64,000 nt of DNA from contig CAWIAD010000002.1 in assembly GCA_963833985.1 (NCBI GenBank), forward strand, positions 960,001-1,024,000. Direction: 5' to 3'. This DNA comes from an uncultured Planctomycetaceae bacterium. GTDB taxonomy: Bacteria; Planctomycetota; Planctomycetia; Isosphaerales; Isosphaeraceae. The notes under the pieces were generated by a model. The model had not been told where the DNA came from. It ran no database searches and worked only from the letters and a program-made list of their open reading frames with translations. Position numbers and translations under genes: made by a program. Positions 51,285-57,057 of this stretch are shown in pieces; position 1 is the first letter of the stretch, and each line of letters opens with the position of its first letter.

Positions 51285-52023
51285 GAGTCGTCTGCTCCGG
51301 TCCACAAGGGAACCGGTTCACGAAGAAACAAGATCGAAGGCACAGGGCAGCGTGCCTCACAGGGGTTGGACGTGCATGGCGTTCGACATGAACCCCTATC
51401 AGGTTCCTAGCTCGGCGGCTTGCCACTGTCAAGAACGACCCCACAGGAGGCCTGGCTAAGCAGATCCGTAGAAGTCATTGGACGGGATTCCAGTGCGCCG
51501 TGGAAAGGTGTTGGTCTTCAGTGGGTGTAACTCCCACCCGGCAACTGGGTCGCTCCAGCCGGTAGCTATCGGAGCGGCGGTGGAGGAGACGAAACCGTCG
51601 GAGCCTTCGAGACAGATGTGTCGCTTGGCGATGCAGCGAACCGACAGGCCGTAACGCGAGTGAACGTTGAGCAGGCCTCGAAAAGTCCAATGTGGTCGCC
51701 GACCTTGCTGGAATATGGGGAAGGCCGCCGTCGCTGGGGATGAAAGGGAAACGGTTGGAATAGGCCGCCCCACGAGCGATCAGAACCCAGCGGGCCACCG
51801 GGGTATTGACGACGGCATGTCGGCACACGGAGATCAACACAACACGGGAAACCCCAAGCGGTGAGGGCGCGTGACCCTCAACCGGACGCCCGCGAGGGAC
51901 CGGCCGGGCTGCCTGGGGTGGCGGAGAGGCCCGTAGTACCGTCGACGCCGGGTAACTCCGGTCGAGGGAAGGGGCCTTGGTTCAAGGTCAACGCAACAAG
52001 CGGCAGACAGCCGGGAGATTGGC

Positions 52024-52722
52024 GTGAGTCTATCACCTCCACTGAAGGTCGGGAAGTTGCAGACGGCGTTGCACACCAAAGCGAAGAACGCGCCCAACTA
52101 TCGGTTCTACGTCCTGTACGACAAGATTTATCGACGTGACGTTCTGGGATTCGCCTACGAACGCTGCCGTGCCAACGGCGGCGCGCCGGGGATCGACGGC
52201 CAGAGTTTCGCCGACATCGAGGCGTCCGGGAAGGAACGATGGCTGGACGAACTGGCGGAACAACTTCGTAAGGAGACGTATCAACCCCAGGCGGTGCGGC
52301 GCGTGTACATCCCCAAAGGGGACGGCAAGCAAAGGCCGCTGGGCATTCCTTGCATCAAGGATCGTGTGGTGCAGATGGCTGCGGTGCTGGTCTTGGAGCC
52401 GATCTTCGAGGCCGACCTGGAGCCGGAACAACACGCCTACCGCCCGGAGCGCAGCGCCCTGGACGCCGTCCGCGAAGTCGAACGGCTGCTCAAGACGGGG
52501 CACACCGAGGTGGTGGACGCGGACTTATCTGGATATTTCGATAGCATACCCCATTCCGAGTTAATGAAATCGGCGTCACGGCGCATCAGCGACGGTCGCG
52601 TCCTGCGGCTGATCAAGATGTGGCTGGAAACACCGGTGGAAGAAACCGACGGGAAGGGGCAGCGCCATCGAACGACCCGGAATAAAGACCAGGGGATGGG
52701 TACACCGCAAGGTGCACCGATC
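52024..52722 (+). pseudogene. ltrA: Group II intron RT/maturase, 5' half (RT0-RT4)
   Basis: GAPGIDG, RRVYIPK, RPLGIP, DRVVQ, DADLSGYFDSIPH and GTPQGAPI, then the insertion. Confidence 0.93.
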
Positions 52723-54372
52723 ACGCCCCCAACAATGTTGCGAACTACGTTGTTGGGGGCCTTTCTCAAAAGGGGACGGACTGACCCGATACACGATGCG
52801 GACCTCCTGCTCGTCGATCTCGACCTTCTTCACCAAGGCCCGAACCACCTCCCGTCGCGTGGCCCAGTCCGGCTCTTGCAACCCTTGCGAGACGCGACGT
52901 GCGAACTCCTCCAACTGACCGATCACCAGTCGCAATTCCGCCTCTTGGGCGGCCTCGCCGATTCGTTGTCGATGCTCCTCCGCCAATCTCGAGAGGCGCG
53001 TCCTTGCCGCCGAGATCCGGGGCTCGAACTCCGATTTGTCGAGCAACCCGTCGCCGTAAGCATCGATTAATCGAGAAATCATCTTTTTCACATTATTTAT
53101 CAATTTGCCGAGATGCTCCACCTCCTGATTCGGCCCGCCCTGGGCACCCTGCAGCCGCCGCTCGTACTCCTCCCGGACCCGCTCCGGCTCGGACAGGAGA
53201 CCTCGTAAGTCCTCCCAGACGGCAGCGTCAAGGATATCGGTGCGGATCTGCTTGTTCCAGCAGAGGCGCTGCCCGCCGAAACGATAGGCGTCAGAGCCCG
53301 TGCAACGGTAGTACGCGTAGCGGACCCTACCCTTGCCCTCGAACGCGGCTCGGCTCGTCGGCTTGCCGTAGCAGCCGTAGCCGCAGCGCTTGCAGACGAC
53401 CAGGCCCTGGAGCAGATATCGGCCACCGCCGGGCCGGTCGCGACGGCGTTGCCGGTTCTCTTCAAGCTGGGCCTGGACAGCCAGGAAGAGGTCTTCGCTC
53501 ACCAGCCCGGGGACTTCAATGAAGATTTGATCTTCCGAGGATGTATCAACCCGTGAGACCGGTCGCCGGGAGTGTTCGGGGCGGCCTCGCTGCGGGCGGA
53601 GGCGTTGAGGTTTGAACTCACCTGAGCGCGTCTTGCCGAAGGCCGCGGTCCCCTTGTAGGCAGGGTTCTTGAGGATCAACCAGACCGTCGCGCGATCCCA
53701 GGCCGATTTCCCGGTCCGCGTCGGGATACTGTCGCGCCGGAGGCGTCGGCACACCTCGCCGATCGAGCACCGTTCCTGACCCACCCATTCGAAGATCTTC
53801 CGCACGACCCGGGACTCTTCAGCGAGGACCTGATAACGCGCCTCGCCACCTCCCTCGTGCTTGCCGATGTAACGGTAGCCGTACGGCGCGCCGCTGAGGA
53901 CGTTGACCGAACCGCGGCGGGCGGCGTGTTGCTTGCCCCTGCGGCAACGCTCCATGATCTTGGCGCGCTCGTATTCCGCGATCATTCCCTGGACCTGAAG
54001 CAGCAGGTCGGCTTCCGGACTGCGGCCGACGGGGTTGCGCAAGAAGACGACCTCGACACCGCACCGGATAAGTTCCTCAAGGATCAAGACCTGATAGGCA
54101 TACTTGCGTGAAAGTCGATCCGGATCGAGCATATAGAGGCGGTCGATGGCTCCAGCGGCGGCTTGGTCCCGAAGTCGCTCGAGTGCCGGTCGGGCCAGGA
54201 TGTAACCGCTGACGCCGTCGTCCACGAAGTGCAGTTCGGGCTCGCATTCCAAGCCATCAGTGGCGATCCGCTGAGTGACCGCCTCGAGCTGGCTGGCGAT
54301 CGTGTCCTCCTTCTCCTGCTGCTCCCCCGAAACCCGGGCGTAGAGCGCCACGCGGAGATTGTCCGTGATCAT
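52576..54372 (-). CDS. Large serine recombinase (resolvase + recombinase + Zn-ribbon + coiled-coil)
   Basis: YARVS catalytic Ser, DDGVSG, RPALERL, DRLSR, APYGY, LLQGLVVCKRCG, YYRC; the ORF runs through the element end into antisense RT sequence. Confidence 0.95.
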   Translation of the reverse strand: MITDNLRVALYARVSGEQQEKEDTIASQLEAVTQRIATDGLECEPELHFVDDGVSGYILARPALERLRDQAAAGAIDRLYMLDPDRLSRKYAYQVLILEELIRCGVEVVFLRNPVGRSPEADLLLQVQGMIAEYERAKIMERCRRGKQHAARRGSVNVLSGAPYGYRYIGKHEGGGEARYQVLAEESRVVRKIFEWVGQERCSIGEVCRRLRRDSIPTRTGKSAWDRATVWLILKNPAYKGTAAFGKTRSGEFKPQRLRPQRGRPEHSRRPVSRVDTSSEDQIFIEVPGLVSEDLFLAVQAQLEENRQRRRDRPGGGRYLLQGLVVCKRCGYGCYGKPTSRAAFEGKGRVRYAYYRCTGSDAYRFGGQRLCWNKQIRTDILDAAVWEDLRGLLSEPERVREEYERRLQGAQGGPNQEVEHLGKLINNVKKMISRLIDAYGDGLLDKSEFEPRISAARTRLSRLAEEHRQRIGEAAQEAELRLVIGQLEEFARRVSQGLQEPDWATRREVVRALVKKVEIDEQEVRIVYRVSPSPFEKGPQQRSSQHCWGRDRCTLRCTHPLVFIPGRSMALPLPVGFFHRCFQPHLDQPQDATVADAP

Positions 54373-54737
54373 GGTTTGTCAAACCCCCCCGACCTTGGAC
54401 TGGATAGTGTGGACCACAGTCGCGTGGTTGCGGCTGGGTCGCGGCCGATCCAGGCGCTGCGAAACGACCGGGATCAAGACCTGATATGCACGCGCGATCA
54501 ATTGCTCCTGAAGCCGAGTGAACTCGAAGTGGCGGGTGACAGGAGGACTGAACGTGGGCCTCCGTGGGGACGTGATCATGTCGACTCCTCCTCTCCGAGA
54601 GCGCGGCCGCCAGCCTGCCTTGGATCGGGATCGAGTCGGGGCTGCCATCCGTGCCCGTACTTCGGTCGAAGCCGCGATCTGGAAATGACAGAGTCAGGAA
54701 TCAGGGACGATTTTGCAACATTGTTGGGGGCGTGATC
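52719..54737 (-). mobile_element. 2.0-kb serine-recombinase integrative element inserted in the RT gene
   Basis: Perfect 23-bp inverted ends GATCACGCCCCCAACAATGTTGC (52719-52741) and GCAACATTGTTGGGGGCGTGATC (54715-54737); GATC present at both junctions. Confidence 0.92.
54379..54579 (-). CDS. 66-aa accessory protein of the recombinase element (candidate directionality factor)
   Basis: Strong RBS GAGGAGGAG; stop 6 bp before the recombinase ATG; MITSPRRPTFSPPVTRHFEFTRLQEQLIARAYQVLIP. Confidence 0.6.
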   Translation of the reverse strand: MITSPRRPTFSPPVTRHFEFTRLQEQLIARAYQVLIPVVSQRLDRPRPSRNHATVVHTIQSKVGGV

Positions 54738-55337
54738 TCACCATTGTTGTCAAACATCTACATGCGACGATTTGTGAAGGGATGGAAGACTGGTGGACAC
54801 GAGCGGCGTCTGGTCGCGCGAATCGTCAACTATGCGGACGACTTCGTCATCTGCTGTCGCGGCACGGCCGAAGAGGCCATGACGGTGATGCGGAAGATGA
54901 TGTCCAGGCTGAAGTTAACGGTGAACGAGACCAAGACGCGGCTGTGCCACCTGCCTGAGGAGACGTTCGACTTTCTGGGTTATACCCTCGGCCGGAACTA
55001 CGACCGACGAACGGGCCGATCCTACATAGGGTCACGCCCATCGCGGAAGAAGATCATTCGGCTGTGCAGCGAGATCAGTGCGATGACGACGCGCCAGACC
55101 ACTGGACAGGACGTCGAGATGCAGATTGGTCGGATCAATCGCAAGTTACGCGGTTGGTCCAACTATTTTCGCATCGGAACGGTGAGCCCAGCCTATCGCC
55201 AAGTCAACCACCACGTCCGCTACCGGGTACGTCAGTGGTTGTGTGCGAAGTTCAAGGTGCCGGGTCAGGGGCTCAGACGCTACCCTGACAGATACCTGCA
55301 CCAGGAGTTGCATCTTTACCAGCTGCAACGAACCTAG
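54738..55337 (+). pseudogene. ltrA: Group II intron RT/maturase, 3' half (RT4-7, X domain, no En)
   Basis: SPLLSNIYM, NYADDFVI, KT, FDFLGY and LRGWSNYF. Confidence 0.93.
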
Positions 55338-57057
55338 CCGCGATGGTTTCGTGAGCGAACGTGTGAACTCAACCGATGAGACAAGCCTTGTCCGAAAGCT
55401 GGATGCGGGAAAACCGCCCGTCCAGTTTGATGAGCGGGGTGTGGAAACGAGGCCCAGCCGAGCCATCGACTCGAGCCCACCGCGCCACACCTCGACTCTA
55501 CGTTCGCCTGCCCGGGGCTAAGAGCCAGGCGTGGCCGCCGTCCTCGTGGGGTACGATTCCAGTCGTGCCATTCCTGGTCCATCAACTAGTAGCCGTTCAC
55601 GGGCCTATGGTGACTCCCGTTCAGATCTGAACCAGCAACGGCATCCGTTGGGCAACCTGTCTGCAAGATGCTCATGGCTTTCCCGAAAAGGCATCGGTGT
55701 CGTCGGACCGACGCGCACAATCCCGTGCTCGATGCTTCGGTTGAGTCGACCGAAGCCATTATTCCCAATTGACCCATGTCTCTCTCGATCGCCTTTTTGT
55801 GGCTCTCAAGACCCGCCGCACCTCGGCGGAGGCCGGCGCCCGGCCGGCCGTCGTCCTCGGCTGAGGGGTGACCCGGGCTCTGGCCGCCGAGCTGCTGGCA
55901 GTGCCAGAAGCGGCCATGGTCACGCTGGCGGAGAAGCAACGTATTGCTAAATTGCAAAAGTTATAAATAGCACTGAGTGTTGGCAGATGGAGCGAGCCCG
56001 TCGACGGGGAGCTGCGCCTGGCCGGCAGACTGGCGCAATACGAAACCCGGTGCCGCCCGATGGTCTGCTACGACCCACGAAGCAACCACCGGCGACTCTT
56101 CGAGCAGCCGCGGTGCCCGTGCGCCGAGGGACTCGATGCCGAGGTCCCGACCGCCGAGGCGGGCGGATCGCTTCACCTCGCCGATCATCCGACGGCTGGC
56201 CTGCCGAGGGAACCTGCCCCGGCGTGGGCGCCGCGGGAGCCCGACGGCGCCGGGCCGGGACGCGTACCGCCCGATGGGCCCAGCGAATCGCTTGGGGTCC
56301 CACGGGACAGGGTCAGGGTGCGGCGGTGGCCGGGATCAGTCTGCTTGATGGGTAGGAGGATACCGAGTGCCATCATGAGATCCCGGTCCGGCCGTCGGGG
56401 CCACGGCGATTGAGACCCGCCGCCGCCTTTATTCGCCATTCGGAAGACCATTGGCCCGACCATTCCGGCAGCGGCCTCGCGGCGAAGGACGCATTCCTGT
56501 TTTCGCACTGCCTCTCCCATGACATGAGAGTGCATCGCTGTCCGCTCATTCTCGCGTTCAGCGTCTCGCCGGCGCAGACGTACCACTTCGAGCCGATGTC
56601 TTCCACGACGTAACCGACGTCATGCCGGAGTATGTTGACCTGATCGGCCGCATCGAAGCGATTCGCACCGGGCGAGCGCTCAAGCAGGAGATCCGTTGGG
56701 AATTCCGAACGCTCAGCGGCGGGCCGACACTCCCGTTGACCCAGCACGGCATGATCCGGCTGGCCGAGGTGCTGCGCTGGGGCGATATGGCGGGCTGTCA
56801 GTTCGCGATTGGATTCAAGACCGTATGGGGCCGGCGCCGCGGGCCATAACTCTTTTGACGACGTGAGCCGGCGGGGACTCTGACGATCACCAGGGATTGG
56901 CTCCTGCTGCCGCGCCGGATTCGCTGTGGCCCGCGGCGCTAAGATCCTCGGGTGAATCGAGGCGCCGCCATGGATCGCCCCCGACGAGCCCCCCCAGAGA
57001 GGGATGCGGCATGAGCGCCGGCCGGGCCCACGCCGATCGGTCGAGCCGTCCGGATCC

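Follow-up and report, generated by a model that had tools for sequence, protein, structure and literature searches.

A 64,000-nt stretch of DNA from an uncultured Planctomycetaceae bacterium (GenBank assembly GCA_963833985.1, contig CAWIAD010000002.1, positions 960,001 to 1,024,000; hereafter the window) contains a group II intron whose reverse transcriptase (RT) gene is split by a 2013-bp mobile element encoding a large serine recombinase (LSR) and one small open reading frame (ORF). The element is recently active and widespread, and its target in diverse intron RTs is one codon, PQG-x-x-[X]-S-P. We consider it quite probable that this is a minimal element, similar to an insertion sequence (IS), which reaches the conserved RT codon by means of its own LSR, through a predicted circle whose symmetric attachment site (attP) would recombine with intron DNA at a 2-bp core. 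The family is apparently undescribed, and is likely a parasite of another genetic parasite.

A two-gene recombinase element interrupts the RT of a group II intron

The preliminary description of this DNA reported an RT ORF split by a 2015-bp insert with perfect 23-bp inverted ends, and our analysis agrees: the RT profiles break exactly at the insert (Pfam RVT_1 at 124/126, NCBIfam TIGR04416 at 186/187), and deleting the 2015 bp yields a stop-free RT/maturase of 432 amino acids (aa) with P-I-S-P and YADD. Also as described, the insert encodes only a three-domain LSR, on the minus strand, and a 66-aa ORF. The perfect inverted match pairs positions 52719-52741 with 54715-54737. The GATC found at both junctions had been read as the crossover core, which is wrong; as a core or as a 4-bp duplication it is rejected by two copies of the element that lie outside introns, one whose junctions share only AT and another that has AA at one end and AT at the opposite end, and by relatives, whose cores are AT, CT, GT, AG, AC and CG. 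The junctions of the outside copies therefore set the core at 2 bp, the element at 52722-54734 and the arms at 20 bp; only these 20 bp of the inverted match belong to the element, the outer G/C being target bases. The features of the insertion are:

52722..54734, minus strand: the mobile element proper, 2013 bp
52720..52721, unstranded: left crossover core AT, 2 bp, bases 1-2 of the target codon
54735..54736, unstranded: right core AT, 2 bp
52722..52741, unstranded: terminal arm at the 3′ end of the recombinase gene, 20 bp; its minus strand also codes for the last LSR residues
54715..54734, unstranded: terminal arm at the leader end, 20 bp, a perfect inverse of the other arm
52576..54372, minus strand: LSR ORF, 551 codons to the core plus a 47-aa tail from the antisense RT flank
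54379..54579, minus strand: conserved 66-aa ORF upstream of the recombinase; no Pfam or NCBIfam match
52024..52719, plus strand: 5′ part of the RT/maturase ORF, to G-T-P-Q-G-A-P (Pfam, NCBIfam, ORF joining)
54737..55337, plus strand: 3′ part of the RT/maturase ORF, with S-P-L-L-S-N, YADD and the maturase domain (Pfam, NCBIfam, ORF joining)

The recombinase has the Resolvase, Recombinase and Zn-ribbon domains of Pfam, and in an alignment of 53 relatives the catalytic Ser15 is nearly invariant and four Cys are invariant; the three domains, the catalytic Ser and the Zn cysteines place it among the LSRs. Its nearest named relatives are from planctomycetes, and its closest relatives of solved structure are TP901-1, YokA and A118. 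The element supplies no stop codon for the LSR frame, which reads through the core into the flank, so that the length of the protein differs by context: 598 aa in the window, 624 aa where the element is inverted, 573 aa in one of the copies outside introns and 603 aa across the predicted circle junction. An in-frame LSR-RT fusion protein in the sense orientation was rejected, since the two frames are offset by one base.

Of the 73 loci with enough sequence, 69 have a homologue of the 66-aa ORF upstream of the LSR, with no antisense matches. None of its 111 database homologues has a name, and in the protein atlas it fell only into 'hypothetical' clusters, under 0.9. The protein is a candidate directionality or regulatory factor; we give the directionality role less than an even chance. 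Between this ORF and the leader-end terminus (window 54580-54734), continuing the LSR frame over the predicted circle junction gives 150 nt free of stops in each of the distinct planctomycete leaders (17 of 17), and the frame closes at a stop that overlaps the start of the 66-aa ORF. In these leaders, stops interrupt the remaining sense frames in 17 and 14 cases, and two antisense frames in only 5 and 3; because the antisense frames are also mostly stop-free, selection on the 150-nt frame is not established. A promoter and terminator scan returned 0 promoters, and 3 terminators where 2.9 were expected. The two arms could close the insert as an RNA stem of -48 kcal/mol.

The host intron and its copies in the source genome

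The interrupted gene belongs to a group II intron with a GUGYG start, domains I and V/VI, an RT-maturase ORF between them, and pairing of exon-binding site 1 (EBS1) with intron-binding site 1 (IBS1):

51493..55501, plus strand: group II intron, intergenic, 1994 nt when empty and 4009 nt with the element; GTGCG start and CTCTAC end in all copies, supported by Rfam
51487..51492, plus strand: IBS1-like exon sequence directly 5′ of the intron, complementary to 51756-51761 in domain I
51519..51659, plus strand: part of intron domain I (Rfam group-II-D1D4-4, 98.9 bits)
55394..55501, plus strand: intron domains V and VI (Rfam Intron_gpII at 55394-55476, 41.2 bits; 3′ end common to the copies)

Folding of domains I-III gave z = 0.6. 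All intron copies have differing flanks, and a similar IBS1-like sequence precedes the start of the other copies. A benefit to the element from being spliced out with the intron, as had been suggested, is not supported: across the exon junction of the window, no open frame exceeds 62 aa, and splicing out is not needed because the intron is intergenic. The intron targets the loop of a hairpin repeat, which we take to be REP-like (repetitive extragenic palindromic); it lies at window positions 55546-55571 and in all intron flanks, and 56 intact copies (≤3 mismatches) are left in the source genome.

The source genome (G000; 10.16 Mb, two contigs, C1 and C2, 65% GC) holds 12 near-identical introns, ten with a split RT and two empty. 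The empty copies, at C2:1391320 and C2:2152285, answer the preliminary description's call for uninterrupted introns, and show that the empty site is real. There are 11 full copies of the element, 99.9-100% identical, and one further element end at a contig break. Nine full copies occupy the same codon of the window's intron, two of them with the LSR antisense to the RT, as in the window, and seven in the sense orientation. The other two, one intact and one frameshifted, lie outside introns, from which we conclude that the element is mobile on its own.

At C2:2147542-2148824 in the source genome, one composite copy has an extra 1283-bp IS inside the 3′ part of the RT, with an 11-bp duplication; the transposase of this IS is presumably ISAs1-like. 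At C2:4627313-4628477, a decayed intron of 95% identity shows an older, independent invasion: its target codon is occupied by what is left of an element of 81% identity.

Relatives of the element occupy the same RT codon across phyla

For a genome census, the best 80 of 548 matches in a species-genome scan gave 79 loci of 42-97% identity; for a metagenome census, we took the best 80 of 581 matches. Of 60 related genomes, 10 also contain relatives, as do 49 plasmid records. By hand count, 52 of the 79 genome loci are flanked by half of an RT that either stops at PQG-x-x or begins at x-S-P, always at the same distance from the end of the LSR; the remainder have other targets (21) or no readable flank (6). 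The metagenome loci behave in the same way, with 56 of 80 at the RT site, 20 elsewhere and four without a flank. The RT-site genome loci are spread over 42 genomes, whose titles name Planctomycetota, Chloroflexota, Pseudomonadota, delta proteobacteria, Acidobacteriota and Spirochaetota, and the 5′ halves of the flanking RTs are 32-83% identical to that of the window. As a control, no RT adjoined any of 71 distant viral LSRs, and a strict motif matched in 14 of 670 windows inside LSR genes. The proposal that a conserved RT codon block serves as target, made from the window's sequence together with the advice to examine the flanks of LSR homologues for RT PQG junctions, is supported.

Both orientations are equally common at the RT site (24 antisense, 22 sense; p = 0.88), and six of the 52 loci have two like RT halves, either two 5′ or two 3′. 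RT-site members are found in most branches of an LSR tree (40 of 64 rows). The same architecture is present in a complete isolate genome (L034, Singulisphaera acidiphila), and in Pseudomonas plasmids L110 (pWW53, NC_008275.1) and L111 the element likewise interrupts this RT codon; all that the two plasmid records list is a recombinase or an RT fragment.

Relatives with other targets include several in transposase genes (L062, L087, L091, L092, L079, L156 and L193), identified by Pfam as Mutator/IS256 (L087, L091), rve (L062), DDE_3 (L156) and IS4/5-type (L193). Five transposase-site rows form one clade with support of 98. From their motifs we take the targets of L079 and L084 to be IS5 and GIY-YIG, respectively; Pfam gave no match for either. 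A side branch (L064, L097) lies inside an apparent intron domain V with a CG core, and has an arm that is unlike the RT-site consensus and resembles the target; domain V was assigned by comparing the flank with the domain V pattern by eye, and Rfam did not detect the split domain. Other branches insert repeatedly in short non-RT repeats (L010, L020 and L027 in genome G002; L036, L040 and L041).

Core, arms and a model for integration

Among 45 elements with both ends mapped, the cores at the two ends are the same in 28 and different in 17, which suggests relaxed core matching. LSR integrative elements are expected to have a 2-bp crossover core and a precise empty site, and both are found here; they are also expected to require core identity and to have a fixed orientation, and neither is seen, given the 17 mismatched pairs and the even split of orientations. 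The element is hence an LSR integrative element by its domains and 2-bp core, yet, judged by its junction sequences, departs from core identity.

Within the arms, positions +2, +3, +5, +6, +8 and +9 are conserved at 81-100% at both ends and +1, +4 and +7 are not, a pattern that opposes the LSR's own codon constraint. As would be expected if the recombinase recognised codon-fixed bases, the arm consensus (NACNCCNCC) is a mirror of positions 1 and 2 of the G-G-V codons on the 5′ side of the target; the target bases at +8/+9 are fixed by the selection rule rather than free. As a stand-alone predictor of targets, the arm motif failed. The window site scores poorly, so more distal contacts must matter.

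Serine recombinases make a 2-bp staggered cut and exchange strands by subunit rotation. In our model, the LSR would excise the element as a circle, the two 20-bp arms would join to form a palindromic attP, and this attP would recombine with intron DNA at the 2-bp core. Because a palindromic attP cannot tell left from right, insertion would occur in both orientations at close to 50:50. A core match would not be needed, and heteroduplex junctions would leave different cores at the two ends. What the element gains is likely a dispensable, multicopy and conserved landing site.

Several points weigh against this model. About 30% of the assessable homologues are at other sites. The inner-arm motif alone is weak: the window site scores 6 of 12, a value reached by ~9% of random AT sites, and the two outside-intron sites reach 6 and 5. 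The source genome also has another intact RT gene, which no element occupies. Each census covers only the best 80 matches (of 548 and of 581), among which kin are not independent, and the LSR tree is a quick one of 64 rows that leaves out 16 of the 79 loci as truncated or frameshifted. No circle, attP junction, transcript or activity was observed, the material being assembled contigs of other samples; none of the 20 runs listed shares half of the sequence words, and the contigs of the four that were compared contain no end-to-end joint and no informative empty-site joint, which is evidence neither way.

How invaded introns spread

Seven sense-orientation composite introns lie at unrelated sites with exact intron ends. 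Segmental duplication is rejected as their source, because the flanks of composite copies are unrelated beyond 100 bp. All seven sense copies have C at position +16 from the core, and the two antisense and two empty copies have A (0 of 4 with C; Fisher p = 0.003, which is overstated since the copies are kin). This shared single-nucleotide polymorphism (SNP) makes it likely that the invaded introns were copied whole, through retrohoming or DNA recombination. The pattern is most simply read as one insertion followed by copying of the 4-kb unit, which speaks against inversion or excision being frequent. That the composite copies arose by independent insertion, or are artefacts, is unlikely.

We reasoned that an invaded intron may keep an intact ribozyme, such that RT from the empty copies would retrohome it in trans and the element would hitchhike. 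We give this close to an even chance. Trans mobilisation of RT-less introns is documented (PMC2882425), and domain IV is the part of an intron that tolerates cargo (PMC3898094). Hitchhiking is weakened by three points: cargo longer than 1 kb sharply reduces intron mobility (PMC3898094); SNPs are homoplastic among the intron copies; and in genome G061, where a 6.77-kb doubly invaded intron is present in three copies, the 170-bp RT piece between the two elements differs in all three. The preliminary description had proposed co-mobilisation, and its fate is mixed: the seven composites at unrelated sites with a private SNP speak for it, whereas the mosaic pattern of SNPs and the shuffling of RT pieces reveal that copies also recombine as DNA.

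A rival reading is that invaded introns multiply by DNA-level events, such as gene conversion or recombinase-driven exchange, with the SNP co-converted along with the junction. SNPs other than +16 are mosaic, C1:3093682 sharing one with C2:6452665 and two with C1:777223. At L269 (G007:C63:110101-130100), two inverted copies of the element 13.4 kb apart have reciprocally swapped RT halves, the unswapped pairing being found at L270; this swap is either an inversion between the copies or a misassembly. Together with the differing G061 pieces, the mosaic SNPs and swapped halves indicate that DNA-level exchange occurs too, and the six RT-site loci with two like halves fit the same picture. As the main route of multiplication, however, DNA-level copying seems somewhat unlikely to us: conversion needs a directional break or bias, which was not shown; the composite introns end exactly at hairpin-type targets, many of which are still free; and the documented mobilisation in trans offers a route by retrohoming. 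An assembly or polishing artefact around the 4-kb repeat could also be suspected behind the copy number, orientation and SNP pattern in the source genome, since one such copy lies at a break in the assembly (C2 start, C1 start) and the SNPs are mosaic. This is improbable, given that every copy has distinct flanks and that the architecture recurs in the complete isolate genome and the curated plasmid records; an artefact could touch only the link between SNP and orientation, not the family.

The preliminary description raised the possibility of an excisable switch, in which regulated excision would restore the RT, as with the elements excised in sporulation (skin) and in heterocysts. Precise removal does restore the frame, two empty copies exist, the conserved small ORF could be a directionality factor, and the LSR matches XisF weakly (101 bits). 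However, this match is far under the model's cut-off of 375, and the target is not a cellular gene of the skin or fdxN/XisF kind but the RT of a selfish element in intergenic DNA. Moreover, neither empty copy has the SNP of the sense copies (n = 2, weak), mismatched cores need not restore the codon exactly, and the element also lies at unrelated sites, with relatives in transposase genes. We see little chance that the switch explains these insertions. Least convincing is a low-specificity recombinase transposon, similar to TnpX/TndX, that persists in RT genes only because insertions there do no harm. The weak arm motif would suit it, as would the copies outside RT genes (2 of 11 in the source genome, 21 of 73 assessable genome loci), but survival bias cannot yield one codon in RTs this divergent from 42 genomes, and harmless sites are abundant elsewhere; we regard it as highly improbable.

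Comparison with known systems

The element resembles the LSR integrases Bxb1, phiC31, A118 and SPbeta SprA, and the site-specific LSR elements of PMC10083194, in its three-domain LSR, 2-bp crossover and insertion in a conserved gene. It differs from them in its 2-kb size, lack of phage or conjugation genes, perfect inverted ends, equal use of both orientations and retroelement target. The LSR core has been described as highly conserved and as directing the choice of partner site (PMC10083194), whereas the cores of the present family vary and often mismatch. RT or intron terms are absent from the eight supplementary files of that paper.

The closest concepts are LSR-carrying integrative and mobilizable elements (IMEs) nested in genes of integrative and conjugative elements (ICEs) (PMC5704250) and helper-embedded satellites (PMC10111431). 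The IMEs, found in traG, Maff2 and SNF2 genes, and Tn4451/TnpX are similarly LSR elements that occupy a constant position within a gene needed by another mobile element, with possible piggy-backing (PMC5704250); the present element, in contrast, has no relaxase or cargo, is multicopy and has a retroelement host. Assignment to TnpX/TndX-type IMEs or to the multi-targeting LSR clade, which have a mobilisation module, low specificity and usually DUF4368, was rejected: there are only two ORFs, DUF4368 has no match, and one codon is used in ~70% of loci. The helper-embedded phage-inducible chromosomal islands (HE-PICIs) are alike in that one clade of integrases has repeatedly turned to the genes of another element while evolving new sites (PMC10111431). 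They are large phage satellites whose induced excision has been demonstrated, whereas the host here is an intron and excision is predicted.

The IS607 family shares the size of an IS, a serine recombinase and a 2-bp core, but its TnpA is small and carries its DNA-binding domain at the N terminus; the family lacks terminal inverted repeats, always uses GG as its core and is otherwise largely indifferent to the target (PMC6188088). Membership was rejected on the 551-aa LSR, the NF033518 score (26 bits against a cut-off of 110), the perfect inverted ends and the non-GG cores. The twintrons and the ORF-less and IS-interrupted introns of Thermosynechococcus similarly include interrupted RT ORFs and RT-less introns mobilised in trans (PMC2882425); here, by contrast, the inner element consists of DNA and is no intron, and its place is constant across phyla, not incidental. 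A twintron was likewise rejected, since the insert codes for a recombinase and Rfam has no match inside 52722-54734. We found no description of the element in the open literature, a search that did not extend to ISfinder, TnCentral or subscription journals, so prior naming is possible; the available portions of PMC6907783, PMC4853749, PMC6053426 and PMC12884075 contain nothing on it.

A second recombinase family and implications

Intron RTs are also interrupted by another LSR family, unrelated to the first, whose proteins have 680-740 aa and 26-28% identity to the present LSR; its two branches are 35% identical. The GIP/T branch forms inserts of 2718-2721 bp in three different RTs of genome G007, and the sister branch occupies the F-D motif of RT block 3; the loci of the family are L276, L277 and L283 (G007), together with L278, L279 and L280-L282. 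Both LSR families are present in one RT at L278 and L280-L282, and likewise in the cultured strain of S. acidiphila (L034).

We tentatively propose, at somewhat less than even chance, that these are two-gene recombinase satellites of group II introns with a cross-phylum range: they would knock out the RT at a codon-fixed site, tolerate core mismatch and hence accept any intron in either orientation, ride on the disabled intron RNA with RT supplied in trans, and shuffle RT halves, with at least two unrelated recombinase lineages having converged on three RT motifs.

With this element, group II introns have a dedicated and widespread DNA parasite. It could limit the spread of introns, ten of the 12 near-identical copies in the source genome having a split RT; it could account for many of the broken RT genes in databases; and it could create chimeric RTs by swapping halves. 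It represents an IS-sized class of element built on an LSR, and its side branches at domain V and in transposase genes make the evolution of target choice directly testable. If the model is true, a recombinase that combines a palindromic attP with apparent indifference to core mismatch would stand out in its mechanism and could be attractive as a tool for integration.

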